Positions 1 to 5,642 of a stretch of DNA of 5,642 nt are shown here, piece after piece; position 1 is the stretch's first letter; each line of letters starts with the position of its first letter. A model generated the notes under the pieces. The model saw nothing but the letters and a program-made list of their open reading frames with translations. It did no database searches and had not been told where the DNA came from. Origin of the DNA: a virus; the IMG/VR virus record IMGVR_UViG_3300035646_000027; one strand, given 5' to 3'. Both the position numbers and the translations under genes were made by a program.

Positions 1-79
1 TTTGAAGTTGTCCCATAGGATTCTATTAGGACAAAAGAAGTAGTAAAAATCGATGTATGCATCATCGAAAACAGGATAT
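1..79. repeat. Terminal direct repeat, identical to 5564..5642. It is the assembly overlap of a circular genome whose unit length is 5563 nt.
   Basis: Base-by-base, 1..79 (tttgaagttgtcccatagg...caggatat) equals 5564..5642. The VP1 reading frame runs through this junction without interruption. Confidence 0.93.
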
Positions 80-273
80 TTCGGTGTGGTCATTCGGATG
101 ATTGCCGCCGTATTTACGCTGAATGTATCGCCTGGAAGAACCTCATCGACGTAAAACGGGATGAGTTTTCCTGCGTCAAAGGTAGTGAGAATGTTCTGGT
201 CCCGTTTGAAACGTGTCCGGCTCACATGTGTCTGCGGTACGTTGTTAAAGTGTCGCTCATTATTCCGGTTCAT
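1..273 (-). CDS. VP1: N-terminal 91 codons of VP1. The ATG is at 273..271 and the segment is joined across the circular junction to 4157..5563.
   Basis: Hand translation of the minus strand in the same 3k+1 frame gives MNRNNERHFNNVPQTHVSRTRFKRDQNILTTFDAGKLIPFYVDEVLPGDTFSVNTAAIIRMTTPKYPVFDDAYIDFYYFFCPNRILWDNFKYF. An upstream in-frame stop lies at 360..358. The SD AAGGAGA sits 6 nt before the ATG (plus-strand tctcctt at 281..287). Total VP1 is 1680 nt, 559 aa. Confidence 0.85.
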   Translation of the reverse strand, partial: MNRNNERHFNNVPQTHVSRTRFKRDQNILTTFDAGKLIPFYVDEVLPGDTFSVNTAAIIRMTTPKYPVFDDAYIDFYYFFCPNRILWDNFK

Positions 274-655
274 TGCTCTTCTCCTTTTCTGCAGATACTT
301 CTGTAACTTTTTTCTGCTTTCGTTGGATTTCCATTGCCGTGGCTTGTGCTGTTGCGATCATAGCGTGATACTCGTGAATGTTTGTAGGCCACTCCGTAAT
401 ATCAATGGTTTCGTCCGTTTTTGCGCTGTCTACCAGACTTTTGGCAAACTCAGGGTCAAAGCTTGCTTTGCGGACAATGCTTTTGATGTCGCACTCGTCT
501 GCATAGCTCTCGATTTCGGCCTGAATGTCGATTGGTTCGGTTTCAATCAGCTTATTATTGCCTTTTTCGTCCTTGCCCCATACGTACTGCTTTCGCAGTT
601 TTTCGCCTGGATTTGAAAAGAAGGGCTTTCGCCCTTCCTCGTATCGTTTATTCAC
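260..655 (-). CDS. Hypothetical acidic protein of about 131 aa (MNKRYEEGRKPFFSNPGEKLRKQYVWGKDEKGNNKLIETEPIDIQAEIESYADECDIK...EKEKSNEPE). It is a possible internal scaffolding protein (VP3-like) given its acidity and its position directly upstream of VP1.
   Basis: This is the C-terminal two-thirds of track ORF 260..835. A GTG at 655..653 is preceded by the SD GGGAGG with a 9-nt spacer and overlaps the stop of the 80-aa ORF, which suggests translational coupling. The TAA stop at 262..260 lies 11 nt inside VP1. The functional assignment is inferred only. Confidence 0.45.
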   Translation of the reverse strand: MNKRYEEGRKPFFSNPGEKLRKQYVWGKDEKGNNKLIETEPIDIQAEIESYADECDIKSIVRKASFDPEFAKSLVDSAKTDETIDITEWPTNIHEYHAMIATAQATAMEIQRKQKKVTEVSAEKEKSNEPE

Positions 656-890
656 GCGGCTTGCCCTCCCATACCTTATCCGGCTCGATTTTCTCAAACT
701 CGCCGTTTTCATCGTTGAAGTTTGCGATGTGGTAGCCCTTGTAGTCCTCAGGCGACTGCCCAAGGAAGGTCTTTTCGTCCTTTGCCATGATATTGCACAT
801 CCGGGCAAAGGTTTCGTTGCTCTTGCTTTCACCAATGTAGCAATAGTTCTTTGCTACGCTGTCGTAGATGCCATAGTATTCGTGAATCAT
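648..890 (-). CDS. Hypothetical protein of 80 aa (MIHEYYGIYDSVAKNYCYIGESKSNETFARMCNIM...).
   Basis: The ATG at 890..888 has a strong SD AAGGAG 7 nt upstream. The composition is protein-like, in contrast with the overlapping alternate frame. The TAA stop at 650..648 overlaps the GTG start of the downstream ORF. Confidence 0.55.
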   Translation of the reverse strand: MIHEYYGIYDSVAKNYCYIGESKSNETFARMCNIMAKDEKTFLGQSPEDYKGYHIANFNDENGEFEKIEPDKVWEGKPRE

Positions 891-902
891 GTTTTTTCTC
901 CT

Positions 903-1022
903 TTACAGTCTGATGCCGCCCCGCATGGGTTTCTGGCTCAGGTTGATACTTTTCGTCTTGCGTGCCGTCACGTTGAACATTCGCTTGTCAGTGCGTCCAG
1001 GCATCCGCTGTCTGTGCTTCAT
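903..1022 (-). CDS. Small highly basic protein of 39 aa (MKHRQRMPGRTDKRMFNVTARKTKSINLSQKPMRGGIRL, net charge about +11). It is a probable DNA-binding / packaging protein analogous to phiX174 J and to gokushovirus ORF8.
   Basis: Hand-translated; this ORF is not in the ORF track. The ATG is at 1022..1020 with the SD AAGGGAG 7 nt upstream (plus-strand ctccctt at 1030..1036). The TAA stop is at 905..903, 12 nt before the next gene's ATG. The size, the Arg/Lys richness and the position upstream of the capsid module match microvirus J-like proteins. Confidence 0.5.
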   Translation of the reverse strand: MKHRQRMPGRTDKRMFNVTARKTKSINLSQKPMRGGIRL

Positions 1023-1233
1023 TTGTGTACTCCCTTCGCATTAGTTCCAGTTGGATATCGTTTGCCCATGCTTTCATAATCCAAATTCGGTCAACAATTT
1101 TTTTTGCGTCCTCAATGTTGGATATTTTTTTGAGCATTTTATACCCGGCTTCGATTTCTTTGTATAACCTATCTGCTTCAATTCGTAAATTTTTTTCGGT
1201 CTGGTCTCTGACTTGCCATGTCTTATGTAACAC
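988..1233 (-). CDS. Hypothetical protein of 81 aa, helical and charged.
   Basis: The track ORF starts at GTG (plus-strand cac at 1231..1233). The SD GGAGGAG lies about 13 nt upstream. The frame is open upstream to 1284 with no ATG. The next in-frame ATG is at codon 33 (MLKKISNIEDAKK...). No similarity was recognised. The 3' end overlaps the J-like ORF by 35 nt. Confidence 0.45.
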   Translation of the reverse strand: MLHKTWQVRDQTEKNLRIEADRLYKEIEAGYKMLKKISNIEDAKKIVDRIWIMKAWANDIQLELMRREYTNEAQTADAWTH

Positions 1234-1238
1234 TGTCT

Positions 1239-1343
1239 TTACTTCTCCTCCTTCAGAATGTGGTAAATCTGGTCCAGCCTCTCAAGTACAGTTTTAATTA
1301 GCTGGATTGCTTCCCGCAGGTCTTTAACCTTAATCAGTGCCAT
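1239..1343 (-). CDS. Small hypothetical protein of 34 aa (MALIKVKDLREAIQLIKTVLERLDQIYHILKEEK), predicted amphipathic helix.
   Basis: This ORF is not in the ORF track because it is too short. The ATG at 1343..1341 lies 3 nt after the peptidase TAG stop. The SD AAGGGGGT is 8 nt upstream (plus-strand accccctt at 1351..1358). The TAA stop is at 1241..1239, and the 3' end (aaggaggag) provides the SD for the next ORF. Confidence 0.35.
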   Translation of the reverse strand: MALIKVKDLREAIQLIKTVLERLDQIYHILKEEK

Positions 1344-1346
1344 TGG

Positions 1347-1730
1347 CTATACCCCCTTTCTGTATCGTTTTTCACGCACATCTACGTGCGTAAAATTTGT
1401 GTATCTGATTACTCCGCCCTGTTCCATAATGCTGTCTGCGTATTTTGCGACTTCTCCGCTGTTGTGTCCTTTCACTACGATATCTGCTGCCATACCTTTG
1501 CAGTGGTAACTGTTTGATGCTCCGTTTACTTTGCTGTTCCAGCTTGGTGTACGGTATCCGCTGTTGATGATGACTGGTGCGTTGAAGTGGTTTCTGATTG
1601 TTTCCAAGATTTCGAGTAGTTCAGGTGCCCACAAGAATTCTTTTGTTTTGTCTTTGCATCTAAACTCCTCTGCTTTGAAGTGCTGCGTTAATCGGTCGTT
1701 GTTTGTTTGGTTTAAGATTGCTGTACTCAT
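1347..1730 (-). CDS. Zinc D-Ala-D-Ala carboxypeptidase-like peptidase of the Peptidase_M15 family (YcbK/VanY-like). It is the probable cell-wall lysin.
   Basis: 127 aa. The M15 signature is FKAEEFRCKD ... INSGYRTPSWNSKVNGASNSYHCKGMAADI ... FTHVDVR, with the H-x6-D and H-x-D zinc ligands. There is no signal peptide or TM segment. The SD GAGGTGG is 7 nt upstream (plus-strand ccacctc at 1737..1744). This is the first gene after the intergenic promoter. Confidence 0.85.
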   Translation of the reverse strand: MSTAILNQTNNDRLTQHFKAEEFRCKDKTKEFLWAPELLEILETIRNHFNAPVIINSGYRTPSWNSKVNGASNSYHCKGMAADIVVKGHNSGEVAKYADSIMEQGGVIRYTNFTHVDVREKRYRKGV

Positions 1731-1751
1731 TTTTTACCACCTCTTGTTTTT

Positions 1752-1780
1752 TTTATATCATGCCCGGCTTGATAAGTCAA
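1752..1780 (-). promoter_or_regulatory. Sigma70-like promoter driving the minus-strand operon (peptidase and the genes downstream of it).
   Basis: The minus strand reads cccTTGACTtatcaagccgggcaTGaTATAAAaaaaacaagaGGTGGtaaaaaATG. The -35 is TTGACT, the spacer is 17 nt, and the extended -10 is TGnTATAAA. The predicted TSS is near 1745, about 15 nt upstream of the peptidase ATG. The upstream region is A/T-rich with phased T-tracts. Confidence 0.45.
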
Positions 1781-1831
1781 GGGTTTTTGAAAAAAACTTT
1801 TGACGTTCAAGTCGGATGCCCGCGGCAGGCG

Positions 1832-1988
1832 TTTTCAACATTTTCAACGTAGTTTTCAACATTTAAACATTGTTAAACTTTAACACAATAAAGTGTTTCA
1901 ACAATTCAACAAGTTTTAAACAAATCTTTCAACATTCTTTTTAGTGCTTTTTCTTCGTATCAATGTAAAGAAAAAGCACTTTTCAACT
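1832..1988. repeat. Iteron-like array of at least 7 copies of TTTCAAC(A) plus 3 degenerate TT(A)AAC(A) copies. It contains phased T-tracts at a period of about 10-11 bp, which predicts curved DNA.
   Basis: Plus-strand copies occur at 1832, 1841, 1853, 1896, 1905, 1926 and 1981, with degenerate copies at 1862, 1871 and 1914. Two of them form the 9-mer CAACAAGTT (1907, 2016). On the coding strand the unit reads GTTGAAA(A). Confidence 0.5.
1943..1980. repeat. Perfect 13-bp inverted repeat (AGTGCTTTTTCTT / AAGAAAAAGCACT) with a 12-nt loop. It forms an AT-rich hairpin inside the iteron region.
   Basis: The arms are 1943..1955 and 1968..1980, perfectly complementary. The loop is cgtatcaatgta. Confidence 0.6.
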
Positions 1989-2043
1989 TTTCCACATACT
2001 CTACTACTACGACTACAACAAGTTATATAATAAAGGCAAAGCG

Positions 2044-2097
2044 TTATCCCTTGAAGCGAAGCGAATAGGGATTACAGGGTAGAACGTACTCCCTATT
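2044..2097. repeat. Cluster of alternating-orientation 7-mers (TATCCCT > ATAGGGAT < TCCCTAT) able to form two mutually exclusive hairpins. The first loop contains the tandem GAAGC GAAGC.
   Basis: 2046..2051 atccct pairs with 2067..2072 agggat (loop tgaagcgaagcgaat). 2064..2071 aataggga pairs with 2090..2097 tccctatt (18-nt loop). Confidence 0.5.
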
Positions 2098-2101
2098 TTA
2101 C

Positions 2102-2140
2102 CGTGCGCGTGTACGCGCGTTTCGCGCGTGCGCGTGCGCG
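2102..2140. repeat. GC-rich alternating purine-pyrimidine tract, (GCGCGT)n-like, with Z-DNA potential. It folds as a hairpin with an ACGCGCG-TTT-CGCGCGT core stem.
   Basis: The perfect 7-bp stem is 2113..2119 / 2123..2129 with a 3-nt loop. It can extend to 2102..2140 with G:C pairs interrupted by T/G mismatches. It is a roughly 80% GC island in an otherwise AT-rich intergenic region. Confidence 0.55.
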
Positions 2141-2164
2141 GTCTAACGCCTTAAGAATACGCTT

Positions 2165-2207
2165 AAATCAATAAAAGCCCAGTACCTTACTTGATAGGTA
2201 CTGGGCT
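2165..2207 (-). terminator. Rho-independent terminator downstream of VP4, marking the end of the VP1-VP2-VP4 transcription unit.
   Basis: On the minus strand, 13 nt after the VP4 TAA, AGCCCAGTACC-tatcaagtaa-GGTACTGGGCT forms a perfect 11-bp stem with a 10-nt loop, followed by TTTATTGATTT. Confidence 0.55.
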
Positions 2208-2219
2208 AGGTAACACCAA

Positions 2220-3239
2220 TTACAAAATACCACGTTTTTTCGTTTGTTTTTTGGTGACACGTTCTTTGGTCTCTAAGACGGTTTTATAGTCTTGATTCTC
2301 TAGCTGTAGTCTCTTTTCTTTCATTGCGTTTTTTTGTCGGTTTTGCTTAATTCTCCACAATCTTTGTGGGTTTTCTGCTTCCATCTGTTTTTCATAGTAT
2401 CTTGGAATTTGTGCCCGTTTTCCGTTGACGCATTGAATGTAACCTTGTCGCCAGATTTCCGCTTTGTGCTCTTGATAGTAGTGGTCTCCAAGTCCTGGCT
2501 TTAAGCTCATGCAAGCAAATGGTTTTGTTTGCCCTAGTTCATAGTACGAATTAGCTTTTTTGCCGTCTATTTCGTACATTTTTTTTGTAACGTATCCTGC
2601 AACATATCGATACGTTTCTGGAACTGCTTGTGCTATCTGGATTTGTCCCATTCCCCACAGGTCTGCTAACCATTTACTGGTATAGTATCCGTTGTGGTGA
2701 ATTTTGTACAGATTTTCTAGGTCTGTTGGTTTCCAGCCGTATAGTATCATATGGTAGTGTGGCCTTGCTGTCTGTTCTCCGTACTCACCCGCCACAAAAT
2801 AGCGTAATTTGCCCTTGTAAGCCTTCCTGAGGCGTTTTAAGAATTTTTGAATATCTTCATACAGCAAAATTTGAACACTGCTAGGGCGCTTCTTTCCCGG
2901 CTTCCACGTGTATTGTACCTTTCGCATGATTTCCCCAGTTTTTACTATCATGCCCGGTACATGTTCATCATCATAAGTTAGTGTTATAAACCAAACTTCT
3001 TCTTTTGGATAGTCTCGCGCCTCAAGCTCTATGCGTGTTGTCCAGTCCTCTCGTTGTCTAATTCTGCATCCGATACATTGCCCGCATGGAATCAACATGA
3101 CTTTTGGATTATACATCAAATCTTCATATCTCAGCTGTTTCCCGCTTAACTGAGAAAAGCGGGCGAGTGAATATACCCGCCCGCTCTGTTCTCTATCATC
3201 CGGGTTGTACAGCCTTATTAGCGGCTTGTAACAACTCAT
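2220..3239 (-). CDS. VP4: Replication initiation protein VP4, an HUH rolling-circle endonuclease related to phiX174 gene A protein.
   Basis: 339 aa. It has a CxxC zinc-finger-like motif (PCGQCIGCR), motif [11 protein letters not shown], motif [10 protein letters not shown] and motif [14 protein letters not shown] (compare phiX174 A protein YVAKYVNK, with two catalytic Tyr). A weak SD GGGTGA lies 9 nt upstream. The ATGA overlap with VP2 indicates translational coupling. Confidence 0.9.
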
Positions 3240-4099
3240 TTCAGATAATCACCCGGCTTTCTCTTCTCTCCGTATTTTCCTGTCTTGTCCTGCGGGTTCA
3301 TTGCTCTGTTTTCTTTGTTTTTCGGTTTCGGAGTTGGCACTGTCTGTTCGGTCTTTTCCATCTGCTTATAGGTTTTGAGCAAATCTTCTGTCAGCTGCAC
3401 TGGACTACTATAGCCTGTGCTCATTTGACTGCCTACGGCTTCTGCCAGCTGATACCATTGTGATTTACTTTCACTTCGGCTGTAGTAACTGTTTGGCACG
3501 TTGCCGTTTAGCGTAGACACTCCCAGTGCGCTTGACGCTGGCATTCCCATGCTTGCGCCTGTAATTGTTGCGCCTGCGCCCCCTGGCGTGCTTGCTCCAC
3601 CCTGTGCGTATGCTAGAATTGGGTTCAGCCCGGCTTTTCGCATGTCTTCTACTGTTCTTTGGTATGCTGTATTGCTCATGCGCTCTTGGAATTGTCTGTT
3701 TGCTAGCGCTTCGGCTGAATTGTATGCCATTGCTGCGTTGTTTTCTATGTGGTTGTAAATGCCCTGTTGAATTGCTGATAACGTATTATAGCCCATTTGC
3801 ATTAACATATTTTGGCGGTTCGTTTTGCTTTGGAAGGTATTCTGCCCGCTCTGCCACTCATAGTATTTGTTGAGGTAATCCATGATTTGCTTGTCGTTTG
3901 TTCCTCCTTCGCTCATGGATGTACTCTGTCCCCCGCCTTGGCTTTGGCTCATGTTGCTACCTTGGCTCTGGTTCTGGCTTTCCTGTCCAAACATGCTTGA
4001 TAGGCCGTTTCCTATCAGTGACATTCCTGTTGTTACGATTTCTGGATGACTTGCTAGCCATGTTCCAGCGCTTGTTAACATTGCTCCTAGTCCTGCCAT
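3236..4099 (-). CDS. VP2: Minor capsid / DNA pilot protein VP2.
   Basis: The 287-aa ORF lies immediately downstream of VP1. It has a low-complexity Q/G/S/N/M-rich segment ([26 protein letters not shown]) and the segment [37 protein letters not shown], which resembles the conserved core of gokushovirus VP2. Its TGA stop overlaps the VP4 ATG (ATGA). Confidence 0.8.
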
Positions 4100-4139
4100 A
4101 ATCTAAAGTAGCCCGCAATAATGCGGGCTTCCTCCTTTC
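4100..4139 (-). promoter_or_regulatory. Structured leader between VP1 and VP2. A strong SD AAAGGAGGA lies 31 nt upstream of the VP2 ATG, and an 8-bp hairpin (AGCCCGCA-ttat-TGCGGGCT) occupies 20 nt of the spacer.
   Basis: The minus strand reads taa-aaattgtacaaaaaaacgaaaGGAGGaAGCCCGCAttatTGCGGGCTactttagattATG. The stem is 4110..4117 / 4122..4129. There is no other SD near the VP2 start. Confidence 0.4.
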
Positions 4140-4156
4140 GTTTTTTTGTACAATTT

Positions 4157-5642
4157 TTAGAGTTTCTCAAGCCCTGGTACGCTGTAGAGAGGAATGCAGC
4201 GCGTTGTATTGTTCATTACTCGAATCGCTCCAAAAAACTGCGGTTCGTCCTGAACGATTAGCGTCCTTGCAATTTCTGTTTTGCCCTCGCTCATCCACTC
4301 TTGACTTAGTGTCGGCACTTTGTCGTATTTGTCCGCATAGTGCCAGAAGTCCAGCGTTCCATCTGCGTTACTGCGCATTTTACCACTTACCCTGTCCGGC
4401 TTCATGCGATAGTCTGCCCAGGCTTCCTGATAACCGAAGGTCTCATTATCTGTGCTCGTGCCAGTCAACATGATTTCTTTTTTCTTGACAGGCTGTTCGC
4501 CAATATTTGCGAACTGCGGGAAATAGAAGTCCAGTCTGTCTGAACGGCTCCAGAAGCGTTCAAGGCCCTGCTGATAGCTTCTGTTATGACGTACACACAT
4601 GACACCGATAACAAATCCGTGTTCCTCAAAGCTCTTTGTGAAACTGCTTTCGTTGATAGGTGTTACCGACATTGCACCCGTTTCACCAATAGGCGTGTCG
4701 TTTGCGGTCTGCTGTCCGCTGGTCTGCACGATTTGGTTAATATTTACGTGATAGCGTCCGCCACCCAGATATTCAGGTACCTGAACCGTTTTATCGCTGA
4801 TGCTTACGCCAAAAATTGCACGTACCTGCTCGCGGTAGCGACTGCCGCCGCGTGCCAGCGCTTCGTAATAGTGTTGAACTGCAAAAGCTTGCCGTAGCTG
4901 GTTGATGGTGATTCCTGATACGTTGCTTAGGTCTGTTGCCAATGTTGCAATGTTTGCGTCTGTGCTTCCGCTTGCTGATGCTCCATTGATTTGCGCCGCG
5001 TTTTTCACTGGGTTATTCAAATAATTGTTGTTTTCAATAAATGGTGTTGCGCCGCCGATGCCGTTTAGCCAAATTCTGTCTGCTACGTCTTCACCAGTGA
5101 CATTTGTTACTCTCACTGGTGCTTTTCCTGCAATTCCGACTGCTACTTCCGGCCCTCTCTGCGGATACGGCAGACAGCTTGTAAAGTAGTCGTGGAATTT
5201 TGAGACCGGGAGACAGCGCCCGCCTGCAATTGCTTTCAGTAAGGTATTTTCTTCCTTTTCTTCTCCTTTTGGGTCGTCTCGATATTTTATATCTTCATCA
5301 TCTGTTTTGAATAGCGCTGCATTTCCTACGTTCTGATCTCTGAAGAATTCGTTCCAGATTTTAACGTATGCTCTTACTGGTAGTGCATTGATTTCTACTC
5401 TCCTGTTTTCCTCGTGACTGAATATTTTTGTGGGTACTCCCATGTAGTCAAGGATTGATTCTTCGAAAGGTACTGCATCTTGCGGCGATTCGATTATGAT
5501 TTTTGGCACTCTGTAGGTTTTTTCCGGTTCCCACGGTGTTTGCTCTACTTCACCCATGAAGTATTTGAAGTTGTCCCATAGGATTCTATTAGGACAAAAG
5601 AAGTAGTAAAAATCGATGTATGCATCATCGAAAACAGGATAT
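4157..5642 (-). CDS. VP1: Major capsid protein VP1 (Microviridae F-like jelly-roll capsid). This segment runs from the junction to the stop codon, and the gene continues upstream into 1..273.
   Basis: Six-frame ORF 4157..5557, 466 aa. The minus frame stays open upstream through 5558..5642, reading ...YPVFDDAYIDFYYFFCPNRILWDNFKYF-MGEVEQ.... The motifs YVKIWNEFFRDQN, RFWSRSDRLDFYFPQF and a G/S/N-rich variable insertion are typical of gokushovirus VP1. The TAA stop is at 4159..4157. Confidence 0.9.
   Translation of the reverse strand, partial: YPVFDDAYIDFYYFFCPNRILWDNFKYFMGEVEQTPWEPEKTYRVPKIIIESPQDAVPFEESILDYMGVPTKIFSHEENRRVEINALPVRAYVKIWNEFFRDQNVGNAALFKTDDEDIKYRDDPKGEEKEENTLLKAIAGGRCLPVSKFHDYFTSCLPYPQRGPEVAVGIAGKAPVRVTNVTGEDVADRIWLNGIGGATPFIENNNYLNNPVKNAAQINGASASGSTDANIATLATDLSNVSGITINQLRQAFAVQHYYEALARGGSRYREQVRAIFGVSISDKTVQVPEYLGGGRYHVNINQIVQTSGQQTANDTPIGETGAMSVTPINESSFTKSFEEHGFVIGVMCVRHNRSYQQGLERFWSRSDRLDFYFPQFANIGEQPVKKKEIMLTGTSTDNETFGYQEAWADYRMKPDRVSGKMRSNADGTLDFWHYADKYDKVPTLSQEWMSEGKTEIARTLIVQDEPQFFGAIRVMNNTTRCIPLYSVPGLEKL
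5564..5642. repeat. Second copy of the 79-nt terminal redundancy (circular permutation overlap).
   Basis: Identical to 1..79. Position 5564 corresponds to position 1. Confidence 0.93.

Follow-up and report, generated by a model that had tools for sequence, protein, structure and literature searches.

A complete gokushovirus genome carrying a non-coding module that resembles the Faecalibacterium replication origin

Introduction

The stretch of viral DNA analysed here (the window, 5,642 nt) raises the question whether it represents a fragment or a whole genome, and what the one sizeable non-coding gap in an otherwise tightly packed sequence may be doing. Taken together, the data are very probably best explained by a complete gokushovirus circle bearing a module that resembles the chromosomal origin of Faecalibacterium, from which we infer both a replication mechanism and a host. 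A prior description of such a module has not been found in the literature, and its oriC-like character points to the host of the phage as well as to the way in which copying of its DNA may start.

The Genome Is a Circle of 5,563 nt

Bases 1-79 are exactly identical to bases 5564-5642, as stated in the initial annotation, and no longer exact overlap exists, which leaves a unit of 5,563 nt. The overlap (1..79) lies inside the gene of the major capsid protein VP1, where it encodes residues 65-91. On the circularised unit the VP1 frame runs along the minus strand from ATG 273 to base 1 (1..273, codons 1-91), continues at 5563 and ends with the stop at 4157 (4157..5563, codons 92-559 plus stop), so that 273 + 1407 = 1680 nt give 559 codons and a stop; the proposed exit at 5642 and re-entry at position 1 are thereby borne out. 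Linear gene calling does split VP1 in the anticipated manner, with a 466-aa piece (4157..5557) in the list of open reading frames and a second piece of 273 nt, or 91 codons. Homologues align with residues 1-559 in a single piece across the join, and the profile search that had been proposed for the joined protein has returned a full-length Phage_F match (2.8e-138, positions 2-501 of 501) next to matches to phrog_514 (6.7e-197) and to the PDB chains 8des_A (1e-107) and 9cgm_A (6.4e-96).

The circle itself is proven by two independent public assemblies, in which the 5,563-nt unit recurs with 0 mismatches and an intact VP1 of 559 aa, at other breakpoints and with other overlaps: ENA contig ERZ27274402:k119_88882 (5,682 nt) has a 119-nt overlap and is broken at window position 781, and ERZ28599644:LOUI16-1 scaffold_2654 (5,618 nt) has a 55-nt overlap and is broken at position 3695. 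As three overlaps of 79, 119 and 55 nt occur at three positions, the 79-nt repeat is an assembler artefact and not a biological terminal repeat, in line with the earlier warning against reading it as the end of a mobile element. The alternatives of a chimeric assembly, or of a linear element whose terminal repeats are real, have nothing but the bare 79-nt repeat in their favour; they are refuted by the two ENA contigs, are further opposed by the continuous, full-length VP1 over the join and by a gene order that matches MG945334, and have a practically negligible probability. The window has thus been shown to be one complete, circularly permuted and reverse-complemented gokushovirus (Microviridae) genome and not a fragment, as had been claimed.

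Gene Content and Relatives

Nine genes, all on the minus strand, occur in the order VP4, M15 peptidase, orf34, orf81, ORF8, VP5, VP3, VP1, VP2. The assertion that every protein-coding gene lies on this strand has held up, since all homology-supported genes are found there and the five largest plus-strand reading frames are without any homology match. Coding density amounts to 89.8%; apart from the gap at 1731-2219 (489 nt), only gaps of 57, 12, 5 and 3 nt occur. Strong GGAGG-type ribosome-binding sites precede seven genes, an observation that has been counted as host support, and VP1 is preceded by the Shine-Dalgarno sequence AAGGAG. In the 57-nt gap between VP1 and VP2 lies a terminator-like hairpin (4110..4129, minus strand; 8 pairs, 6 of them G-C), identified by consensus match only. 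VP2, the DNA pilot or minor capsid protein (3236..4099, 287 aa), matches phrog_8742, "pilot protein for DNA ejection", over its full length (9.6e-106); one ENA gene call gives it as 281 aa. The VP2 stop overlaps the start of VP4 (ATGA), the rolling-circle replication initiator (2220..3239, 339 aa), whose HUH motif, HYH, spans residues 161-163, with YVAGYVTKK further on at 214-222. Of the initiator assignment, the function has been supported by matches to Pfam REP_ORF2-G2P (PF23343, 5.8e-17) and phrog_942 (8.1e-109); the suggested Phage_GPA profile was not reported at E<=0.01. The M15 peptidase, a putative endolysin (1347..1730, 127 aa; Peptidase_M15_3 4.6e-25, phrog_894 endolysin 1.1e-35), is already annotated in relatives, and such peptidases of gokushoviruses have been described (Roux 2012, PMC3394797).

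The region 891-1346 is not empty but holds three small clade-conserved reading frames on the minus strand. Two of them, orf34 (1239..1343, Shine-Dalgarno GGGGG) and orf81 (988..1233, GTG start, Shine-Dalgarno GGAGGAG), are called as genes in the ENA contigs and have tblastn matches in 81/82 and 75/82 related loci, respectively. The third, ORF8 (903..1022, 39 aa), overlaps the 3' end of orf81, recurs in 81/82 related loci and corresponds to a J-like, highly basic DNA-binding protein (phrog_10695, 4.1e-10, full length), whose C-terminus PMRGGIRL resembles those of Chp2 ORF8 (IMRGGIRF) and the phiMH2K J-like protein (AMRGGIRL). Downstream follow VP5 (648..890, 80 aa; Phage_ORF5 4.7e-12, phrog_1670 1.5e-16) and the internal scaffolding protein VP3 (260..655; Chlamy_scaf 3e-9), both on the minus strand. 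The VP3 frame stays open up to ATG 712 and TTG 835; the protein most likely begins at GTG 655 (131 aa) and not at ATG 712, as judged from the upstream GGGAGGG, the residue at which the phrog_24309 profile begins and the 131 aa given by the ENA gene calls, and no Shine-Dalgarno sequence precedes ATG 712.

The gokushovirus-like nature of the genome has been confirmed by VP2, VP3, VP4 and VP5, which match gokushovirus families, and by the nearest GenBank record, which is classed as Gokushovirinae. As a genome it is ordinary, given that complete microvirus circles are routine and the group is heavily sampled. It shares gene set and genome size with mammalian-gut gokushoviruses that encode an M15 peptidase (MT135277, MG945334, MG945642, KX513877, KT264792; PMC3394797), together with the order VP4, peptidase, VP5, VP3, VP1, VP2. 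The best GenBank match reaches 76.8% nucleotide identity over 65% of the genome, with VP1 at most 71% identical. The annotations of these records lack ORF8, orf34 and orf81 and are silent on the origin-like module, which is present, un-annotated in nearly all cases, in 47 GenBank records. The closest relatives overall are IMG/VR genomes that keep all nine reading frames, e.g., IMGVR_UViG_3300045988_005207 (L018) and IMGVR_UViG_3300045988_005321 (L003). L018 is 87.7% identical over 94%, which is below the 95% species threshold, and by such identities the genome counts at species level as new within a very large mammalian-gut gokushovirus clade. The best relative changes from gene to gene (VP4 96.5% to L016, M15 peptidase 92% to L018, VP1 just 82% to L003); this points to a mosaic history in which VP1 is the most divergent gene.

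An Origin-Like Module in the Non-Coding Region

Regarding the gap at 1731-2219, its non-coding nature (489 nt) has stood, but it is more than the convenient cut site for which it had been taken, as it contains an oriC-like module. The region is strongly structured as single-stranded DNA, and the module proper, of ∼207 nt (1830-2036), comprises some ten TGTTGAAA/TGTGGAAA boxes in one and the same sense, a co-oriented box pair, a spacer of 4 nt, TAG trios and AT-rich DNA. An array of eight boxes of the TGTTGAAA type, again in one sense, occupies 1830..1936 on the minus strand, with exact copies at 1934, 1903, 1861 and 1840; of the 18 box matches with at most one mismatch in the window, 10 fall within 1833-1996 on the minus strand, and the 4 exact ones are all among them. 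Adjacent boxes are often 8-9 nt apart, versus the 11 nt typical of oligomerisation arrays. A perfect 13-bp hairpin (AGTGCTTTTTCTT / AAGAAAAAGCACT, 12-nt loop; 1943..1980, minus strand) separates this array from a co-oriented DnaA-box pair, TTTTCAAC and TTTTCCACA (1981..1996, plus strand), of which the second box has one mismatch to TTATCCACA. Directly after the pair follow, in plus-strand coordinates, the spacer TACT (1997-2000), the DnaA-trio-like block CTA CTA CTA CGA CTA CAA CAA GTT (2001..2024), whose viral-strand reading gives TAG trios, and the adjoining AT-rich ATATAATAAAGG (2025..2036), a candidate DNA-unwinding element. No other part of the genome melts as easily as the module: 1861-1920 and 1977-2036 are the two 60-mers of lowest stability, and 2008-2034 ranks fourth among the least stable 27-mers. 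A strict scan for an unwinding system (box with at most 2 mismatches, spacer of at most 16 nt, (CTA)3), with the trio definition taken from PMC8287927, has found exactly one such site in the genome, compared with 0/2000 random genomes.

Two further hairpins flank the module towards VP4. One is CGCG-rich and imperfect (2100..2142, minus strand; 20-nt arms, 80% complementary), and its CGCGCACGCG recurs in 34/43 related intergenic regions. The other (2176..2207, minus strand) is a conserved hairpin of 12 bp with loop ATCAAGTA and a trailing TTTT; it stands directly after the VP4 stop and may serve as a transcription terminator, as a strand-specific recognition site for Rep, or as both. Its loop context CCTATCAAGTA occurs in 43/43 related intergenic regions. 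Among 119 genomes, a hairpin with CAAGT in the loop is sense-strand in 82 and antisense in 2, with compensatory changes in the stem. At the opposite end, a promoter-like TTGACT - 17 nt - TATAAA (1752..1780, minus strand) upstream of the peptidase gene has been read from the sequence as a weak lead; it is missing from the consensus scan because its second hexamer ends in A.

Across related microviruses the module is kept even where VP1 is only 37-91% identical. The strict scan is passed by 85/119 relatives and failed by 34/119, and 43 related intergenic regions together contain 250 copies of TGTTGAAA-type boxes. The module varies in orientation and in genomic position (two of each), while the genes all stay on one strand, as would be expected for an element acting on double-stranded DNA. 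Orientation independence fits as well with a box array that binds host DnaA without acting as an origin, be it as a sink or sensor, in which the high-copy replicative form with its ∼ten boxes would titrate DnaA and delay host initiation like datA or DnaA-box clusters, or with DnaA as a transcription factor on a downstream phage promoter. The boxes per length do exceed those of the host origin, and the three-box cluster lies 50-90 nt upstream of the promoter-like site and the first gene. Such roles need boxes only, however, and leave unexplained why trios, 4-nt spacer and AT-rich host-like sequence are kept over the same range of VP1 divergence; we regard them as possible but rather unlikely.

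Likeness to the Faecalibacterium Origin

The elements of the phage module follow the order found in the dnaA-dnaN origin of Faecalibacterium, i.e., box clusters, co-oriented pair, 4-nt spacer, eight trinucleotides and AT-rich stretch. The host counterpart of pair and spacer is TTTTCAACA, TCTTCCCCA and CCCC, the trinucleotides at the corresponding place read CTA CTA CGA TTA CTA CAA CAA GTT (21/24 bases the same), ATATAATAAAGG aligns with CAATATATTA, and the three-box cluster at 1830-1871 is collinear with a host cluster (blastn-short identity 30/34). The collinear local alignment scores 135, compared with 63.3 +/- 8.8 (maximum 93) for shuffles. When a 27-base pattern taken from the phage was scanned through 185,579 species genomes, 23 matches emerged, one on a microvirus contig and 22 between dnaA and dnaN, where the adjoining DnaA shares 99-100% identity with its counterpart in F. 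prausnitzii ATCC 27768. In an 8-kb host locus all copies of TGTTGAAA and TGTGGAAA fall into the two intergenic regions flanking dnaA. The box TTTTCAACA deviates from the consensus at two positions, position 6 included, and we infer solely from its enrichment in the host origin that Faecalibacterium DnaA may bind it.

The repeats might alternatively serve as iterons for a phage protein (VP4, VP5 or ORF8), with the Faecalibacterium likeness coincidental or convergent. In rolling-circle plasmids and CRESS-DNA viruses, direct repeats for Rep lie beside the nick site; the array is near a conserved hairpin, and no other protein of the clade is as conserved as VP4 (identity up to 96.5%). Yet the match spans three collinear blocks including the non-box bases CTACAACAAGTT and TTAAATGTTGAAAACTA, the exact pattern is confined to Faecalibacterium origins among the species genomes, and the box 8-mers are restricted in the host to origin regions, which makes iterons improbable. 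Still less probable, and by a wide measure, is an attP-like role, in which the shared sequence would let the phage integrate at oriC of the host chromosome or recombine with it. Enterobacterial gokushoviruses are reported to integrate by mimicking a host site, dif, with XerCD, and exact runs of 12-17 nt are common to phage and host. The genome encodes no integrase, however; in each of the 22 host loci the dnaA-dnaN spacer is intact and free of microvirus genes; no integrated copy occurs among the 185,579 species genomes, though the 27-base pattern would detect one; and insertion at a site as essential as the origin would do harm.

Proposed Mechanism and Host

With these alternatives weighed, we lean, by a modest degree, towards an origin-like function, in which host DnaA would be recruited to the double-stranded replicative form and melt the module. 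The incoming single strand would be converted to this form, whereupon ATP-bound host DnaA could bind the boxes and oligomerise from the box pair onto the TAG trios, melting the adjoining AT-rich DNA. Melting might then allow the host helicase to load, so that the replicative form would be amplified in a theta-type or plasmid-like manner, or might expose single-stranded DNA for the HUH initiator VP4; either option would couple phage replication to host initiation potential. VP4 would subsequently run ordinary rolling-circle synthesis, for which the conserved sense-strand hairpin adjoining VP4, with the loop (A)TCAAGTA, is the best candidate nick site. Against this mechanism stands the fact that microviruses already encode a sufficient rolling-circle initiator. 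Moreover, the phage copies only the dnaA-dnaN half of the bipartite origin, the dnaA-upstream half being absent, and in C. difficile the dnaA-dnaN half alone is not unwound in vitro (PMC7561715). The box spacing of often 8-9 nt, the two deviations of TTTTCAACA from the consensus, the 34/119 relatives that fail the strict scan and the difference in G+C content (44.5% in the phage, 58.2% at the host locus) also count against the overall reading; a prophage has not been found, nor has any phage with a long, nearly identical match to the host origin. The likeness to its origin suggests Faecalibacterium as the probable host; the M15 peptidases of four human-gut gokushoviruses have been found closest to F. 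prausnitzii (Roux 2012, PMC3394797).

Comparison With Known Systems

The cultured gokushoviruses Chp2, phiMH2K and SpV4 have homologues of VP1, VP2, VP3, VP4 and VP5 and the MRGGIR(L/F) ending of ORF8 in common with the genome studied here, which is ∼1 kb larger and has the M15 peptidase, orf34 and orf81 in addition. The module is absent from these three and from phiX174; in the three gokushovirus references no site unites a box, a spacer and three trios, and TGTTGAAA occurs only 0-1 times. The viral-strand origin of phiX174 reads CAACTTG followed by ATATTAATAAC (rep_origin at 4306), and the phage shows some likeness to it, with AACTTG in its trinucleotide block and TACTTGAT as the reverse complement of the hairpin loop. 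The AACTTGTTGTAG block is, however, also present in the host origin and its strand flips between phage clades; it has therefore been rejected as a fixed viral-strand nick site, and the resemblance to phiX174 is treated as chance. The DnaA-dependent "ABC" primosome works on single-stranded hairpins. P1 oriR, pSC101 and RK2 are likewise mobile replicons whose origins depend on host DnaA boxes, but unlike the phage module they combine few boxes with iterons of their own initiator; to our knowledge, no such replicon copies the host module for trios and unwinding, nor is any of them a microvirus.

A close parallel is the bacterial basal unwinding system, as in B. subtilis incC and C. difficile oriC2, where two DnaA boxes in the same orientation are followed by a short spacer and then by three or more 3'-GAT-5' trios and AT-rich DNA, with further box clusters upstream (PMC8287927, PMC6669920, PMC7561715). 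The phage module shares this layout and fits both the published definition (PMC8287927) and the clostridial oriC2 arrangement (PMC7561715). In contrast to the bacterial systems, it resides on a 5.6-kb single-stranded-DNA phage and not between dnaA and dnaN, its spacer TACT is not G+C-rich, its boxes are denser with A+T-rich stretches between them, and it occurs in either orientation relative to the genes.

Circularity and Gene Content

The terminal repeat reported in the initial annotation has been found again: bases 1–79 equal the last 79, no longer exact overlap exists, and the trimmed unit measures 5,563 nt. Its reading as the closure of a circular genome, and not as a terminal repeat, agrees with the occurrence of the same unit in two further assemblies with other breakpoints. 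The exact VP4 protein has been located on the ENA contigs ERZ27274402:k119_88882 (5,682 nt) and ERZ28599644:LOUI16-1 scaffold_2654 (5,618 nt), which after removal of their own terminal overlaps (119 and 55 nt) are 5,563 nt each, are identical to the unit of the window throughout, and have their breakpoints at window positions 781 and 3695. Three assemblies with three breakpoints and three k-mer-sized overlaps thus mark the repeat as an assembler artefact on a true circle, and the agreement of the ENA contigs is the strongest, independent proof of that circle. VP1 does cross the junction as proposed, its minus-strand frame running from the ATG at 273 to 1 and on from 5563 to the stop at 4157 (559 codons). 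The predicted split by a linear caller has likewise been seen, with a 466-aa piece in the linear ORF list and a remainder of 273 nt (91 codons). The overlap codes for VP1 residues 65–91. When the joined VP1 was compared with Phage_F, the check initially recommended, PF02305 was matched at 2.8e-138 over profile positions 2–501 of 501, and the joined protein aligns with its relatives as one piece over residues 1–559; the VP1 join is therefore biologically continuous. The genome itself is routine, and it illustrates the splitting of VP1 at assembly joins by linear gene callers.

Nine homology-supported genes have been placed on the circle, all on the minus strand as first annotated. The five largest plus-strand ORFs (102–184 aa), for which nothing has been found in Pfam or PHROG, have been treated as spurious. 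Coding density reaches 89.8%, the only gaps of any length being 1731–2219 (489 nt) and 4100–4156 (57 nt). Apart from VP1, the minus strand encodes VP2 (4099 to 3236; phrog_8742 pilot protein, 9.6e-106), VP4 (3239 to 2220; REP_ORF2-G2P, PF23343, 5.8e-17; phrog_942, 8.1e-109), an M15_3 peptidase (1730 to 1347; PF08291, 4.6e-25, with 88.3 bits against a curated cut-off of 23.2; phrog_894 endolysin, 1.1e-35), VP5 (890 to 648; Phage_ORF5, 4.7e-12), and VP3 (131 aa, likely from GTG 655; Chlamy_scaf, 3e-9). VP4 carries the HUH motif HYH at residues 161–163 and the two-tyrosine motif YVAGYVTKK at 214–222, and is a predicted HUH rolling-circle initiator. Phage_GPA, the initiator profile named at the outset, has given no report at E ≤ 0.01 and has been discarded, the family matched being PF23343. 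For VP3, GTG 655 is the most likely start rather than the first ATG at 712, since it coincides with the start of the PHROG profile, has GGGAGGG upstream and agrees with the 131 aa called at ENA, and since ATG 712 lacks a ribosome-binding site; from GTG 655 the gene overlaps the VP5 stop by 8 nt. Among the nine genes, no holin-like ORF or signal sequence that would bring the putative M15 endolysin to the wall has been recognised.

The stretch 891–1346 is seemingly empty at a 50-aa cut-off, yet it holds three small minus-strand ORFs conserved in the clade: orf34 (1343 to 1239; 81 of 82 related loci), orf81 (1233 to 988, GTG start; 75 of 82), and the very basic, J-like ORF8 of 39 aa (1022 to 903; phrog_10695, 4.1e-10; 81 of 82), which overlaps the end of orf81. 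All three are mostly un-annotated in GenBank relatives. Orf34 and orf81, directly downstream of the M15 gene, have the appearance of soluble helical peptides. Strong GGAGG-type ribosome-binding sites precede seven genes; VP2 has no evident one. The 57-nt gap between VP1 and VP2 contains a terminator-like, G+C-rich 8-bp hairpin (4110–4129), which may act as an attenuating terminator after the capsid gene.

An Origin-Like Module Between VP4 and the Peptidase Gene

Viewed along the viral strand, from 2219 to 1731, the larger gap opens directly after the VP4 stop with a 12-bp hairpin (2176–2207; loop ATCAAGTA, then TTTT), followed by a CGCG-rich imperfect hairpin with alternating CG/CA runs (2100–2142), TATATAACTTGTTGTAGTCGTAGTAGTAGAGTATGTGGAAAAGTTGAAAAGTGC as a strongly conserved block, a perfect hairpin of 13 bp, and an array of TGTTGAAA-type 8-mers in a single orientation. 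As single-stranded DNA, this region (1731–2219) folds far better than its shuffles (−76.6 kcal/mol, z = −5.0). At ≤1 mismatch, 18 matches to TGTTGAAA are present in the window, 10 of them, with every one of the four exact copies, at 1833–1996 on the minus strand, and 250 copies have been counted in 43 related intergenic regions. Tandem −35 boxes are an unlikely explanation of TGTTGAAA, because the array also occurs inverted. For a non-coding RNA that would serve as a protein sponge, an Rfam search has given no support; it returned nothing in the non-coding region, and its sole match, Termite-leu at 3102–3189 inside VP4, is attributed to chance (26 bits, with a gathering score of 51).

The basal unwinding system of bacterial origins comprises a co-oriented pair of DnaA boxes, a short spacer, at least three 3′-GAT-5′ trios, and then AT-rich DNA (PMC8287927). 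The same layout has been described for clostridial oriC2, where DnaA-dependent unwinding has been mapped (PMC7561715). We have accepted as boxes sequences with ≤2 mismatches to TTATCCACA (≤4 for a tandem partner), spacers of 0–16 bp, and at least three DnaA-trios with a middle A and the consensus 3′-GAT-5′. The phage region contains each element in order: the predicted DnaA box TTTTCCACA (1988–1996) with one mismatch to TTATCCACA, its co-oriented partner TTTTCAAC(T) at 1981 within the limit for a tandem partner, the 4-nt spacer TACT (1997–2000), the trios CTA CTA CTA followed by CGA CTA (2001–2015), and the AT-rich candidate unwinding element ATATAATAAAGG (2025–2036), in a region that ranks with the genome's least stable duplex windows. 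Box and trio region together form the phage's least stable duplex DNA. In a strict scan, which called for a box with ≤2 mismatches, a spacer of ≤16 nt and (CTA)3, exactly one site emerges in the genome, 1988–2024. Not one appears among 2,000 random genomes of equal first-order composition, and phiX174, Chp2, SpV4 and phiMH2K have no such site either. Since the module lies between VP4 and the peptidase gene, and not beside a chromosomal dnaA, we term it a mimic or captured copy rather than a chromosomal origin.

Correspondence With the Faecalibacterium Origin

From the conserved block, a search pattern with 27 specified bases has been derived (AACTTGTTGTAG, 0–12 nt, GTAGTAG, 0–30 nt, GTTGAAAA) and scanned against one genome per species of 185,579 bacterial and archaeal species. 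The pattern occurs at 23 places, and one of these belongs to a microvirus contig of 5.7 kb. The remaining 22 are all situated in the dnaA–dnaN interval; the neighbouring dnaA encodes a protein with 99–100% identity to DnaA of F. prausnitzii ATCC 27768. Among them are four cultured Faecalibacterium strains as well as contigs binned under other names. Repeats serving as iterons for a phage protein would fit these data more poorly, the pattern being found at 22 of 23 places at Faecalibacterium origins, and we regard that reading of the array as improbable. Homology of an attP-like kind, for which the module would serve as a recombination-type match to the host, has to contend with the lack of microvirus genes at all 22 host loci and appears highly improbable. 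Four of the loci (L210, L211, L215 and L220) come from bins named Lawsonibacter, Bacteroides uniformis, Eubacterium sp. CAG:38 and Acutalibacteraceae, with a DnaA that again shows 99–100% identity to the F. prausnitzii protein; Faecalibacterium DNA assigned to the wrong bins is the probable explanation. A Bacteroides bin holds the free microvirus contig L213.

On the complementary strand, the host origin reads TTTTCAACA, TCTTCCCCA, CCCC, CTA CTA CGA TTA CTA CAA CAA GTT, CAATATATTA, and the phage reads TTTTCAAC, TTTTCCACA, TACT, CTA CTA CTA CGA CTA CAA CAA GTT, ATATAATAAA, so that CCCC stands in the host where the phage has its TACT spacer. When the phage spacer in its full length is aligned locally with that of the host, the alignment runs collinearly across three anchor blocks and scores 135, compared with 63.3 ± 8.8 (maximum 93) for shuffles. 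The three-box cluster at 1830–1871 is identical to its host counterpart at 30 of 34 positions, non-box bases included. Within the 8-kb host locus, all copies of TGTTGAAA and TGTGGAAA are confined to the two intergenic regions flanking dnaA, which supports TGTTGAAA as a predicted Faecalibacterium variant of the DnaA box. The Spo0A 0A box is TGNCGAA; TGTTGAAA differs from it by one mismatch, and this assignment has been set aside because the host-origin match explains the motif better.

The G+C content is 44.5% in the phage, with 36% A on the viral strand, and 58.2% at the host locus. Between the shared boxes, the phage is A+T-rich whereas the host is G+C-rich, which suggests selection on the motifs only. 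A long near-identical phage-host stretch that would prove capture over convergence has not been found in this comparison. The 15-nt exact match between 1791–1805 and the host rpmH-rnpA spacer (L206, 696–710) has been taken as chance (E ~0.06); it recurs in eight host loci. The CGCG-rich hairpin at 2100–2142 is kept as a motif in most relatives and is missing from the host origin.

Conservation and Orientation

Scanning IMG/VR for three spaced copies of TGTTGAAA has revealed many microviruses that carry both array and conserved block, although their VP1 is only 37–55% identical, and 85 of 119 related genomes pass the strict scan. The module stands in sense orientation between VP4 and the following gene in 95 genomes, in antisense at that VP4-side position in three close relatives (L026, L043, L063), and, within a distant clade, in antisense in the VP2–VP4 gap of seven genomes (L090, L100, L131, L137, L147, L172, L181). 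GenBank records likewise bear it on either strand, while the phage genes always share one strand. It has been inverted at least twice independently and moved to the VP2–VP4 gap in one clade. Such changes of orientation could not be tolerated by a signal that is recognised on the single strand in the virion, but could be by an element acting on the double-stranded replicative form. AACTTGTTGTAG as a VP4 nick site resembling CAACTTG/AT of phiX174 has been dismissed on the grounds that the block belongs to the host origin and changes strand between clades.

The hairpin with a CAAGT loop beside VP4 has been found on the sense strand in 82 of 119 genomes and on the antisense strand in two. Its stems differ between genomes by compensatory changes and are entirely different between clades, with the loop (A)TCAAGTA / AGACAAGTA kept on the sense strand; the hairpin follows the VP4 stop in the window (2176–2207) and precedes the VP4 start in the distant clade (L181, 5156–5186). 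As it keeps largely to one strand, unlike the module, it is a stronger candidate than the module for a strand-specific function, for instance as a VP4 nick site or a terminator, and it may be the recognition or nick site of Rep.

Proposed Function and Host

In the best-supported reading, which we hold to be somewhat better than even, host DnaA would bind the boxes on the double-stranded replicative form and oligomerise onto the trios, thereby opening the AT-rich DNA, which would either load the host helicase or be readied for VP4. Several points count against it. We know of no microvirus that uses the host initiator DnaA. Adjacent phage boxes are often 8–9 nt apart, the phage and host differ in G+C content and share no long near-identical stretch, and the phage copies only half of a bipartite origin, and the equivalent half was not unwound on its own in C. 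difficile (PMC7561715). The main rival, an array acting only as a DnaA sink or as a DnaA-controlled promoter region, is less probable, at perhaps half the weight or under, for it leaves the conservation of trios and spacer unexplained. DnaA-dependent unwinding, if true, would make the phage-borne box–trio module a new way for ssDNA phages to start or regulate replication, and a natural, minimal, orientation-independent substrate for testing the unwinding model.

The gokushoviruses of the human and animal gut are abundant and, to our knowledge, without a cultured host. Faecalibacterium is a monoderm member of the Bacillota, and we consider it the likely host of this phage. The assignment draws on the exclusivity of the pattern to the origins of this genus, on the GGAGG-type sites before seven genes, and on the observation by Roux and colleagues that, for the peptidases of such phages, F. 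prausnitzii is the closest match (PMC3394797). A prophage search with VP1 peptides against 185,579 species genomes has returned no relative. The M15 homologues, considered as a clue to a bacterial donor, have given no host information: the peptidase alone has 650 related clusters at 90% identity, and the best 120 of the 650 are all on contigs of ~5.5 kb. As the element is otherwise seen only in Faecalibacterium origins, it offers a concrete host prediction that could steer isolation on Faecalibacterium strains, and host assignment in general could come to draw on comparisons of this kind between non-coding phage modules and bacterial origins.

The literature search has produced no paper joining oriC with gokushoviruses or the DnaA box with Microviridae, nothing relevant on Microviridae iterons or on DnaA-trios in bacteriophages, and TGTTGAAA only in primers. 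A clade-wide mimic of the host origin is thus apparently undescribed so far. At least 47 GenBank records contain the module, un-annotated in nearly all, so that the claim is open to immediate and wide checking. The broader proposition, that mammalian-gut gokushoviruses of a very large clade possess a functioning host-origin unwinding module and exploit or need DnaA, with Faecalibacterium as the host, is tentative and in our judgement falls just short of even.

Relation to Known Microviruses

The 5,563-nt circle, with all genes on one strand, falls within the ~4.4–6.3 kb applied here to Microviridae, and it encodes a single jelly-roll capsid protein of the Phage_F family (PF02305). The Gokushovirinae set of VP1–VP5 plus the small basic ORF8 is complete (Chlamy_scaf, Phage_ORF5, phrog_8742, phrog_10695). 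None of the nine ORFs matches the external scaffold (D) or major spike (G) of phiX174-type viruses, and as all nine are accounted for and the coding density leaves no space, neither gene is present. Judged by matches, the closest solved chains to VP1 are 8des_A and 9cgm_A, with no phiX174 F chain at E ≤ 1e-3.

The nearest GenBank record, the porcine MT135277 classified as Gokushovirinae sp., shows 76.8% nucleotide identity over 65% of the genome, and the best VP1 identity in GenBank is 71%. Relatives in IMG/VR are nearer: L018 (IMGVR_UViG_3300045988_005207) has 87.7% nucleotide identity over 94%, and L003 (IMGVR_UViG_3300045988_005321) has the closest VP1 (82%). The best relative changes from gene to gene (VP4 96.5% with L016, M15 92% with L018 and L068, VP2 93% with L018), which points to a mosaic history; VP1 is by far the most diverged gene with respect to L003–L018. 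The genome is a new species-level member of a very well-sampled group with hundreds of public relatives. In many of these (e.g., L002, L052, L067), the VP4-to-M15 spacer spans 700–940 nt, 200–450 nt longer than here; that of MG945334 holds an annotated “hypothetical protein”, and the short form of the window genome contains no ORF >34 aa. M15 peptidases of human-gut gokushoviruses had already been described in 2012 (PMC3394797). The gene order of MG945334 is the same as that of the window genome, and the ORF8 C-terminus, PMRGGIRL, matches those of Chp2 ORF8 and the J-like protein of phiMH2K.
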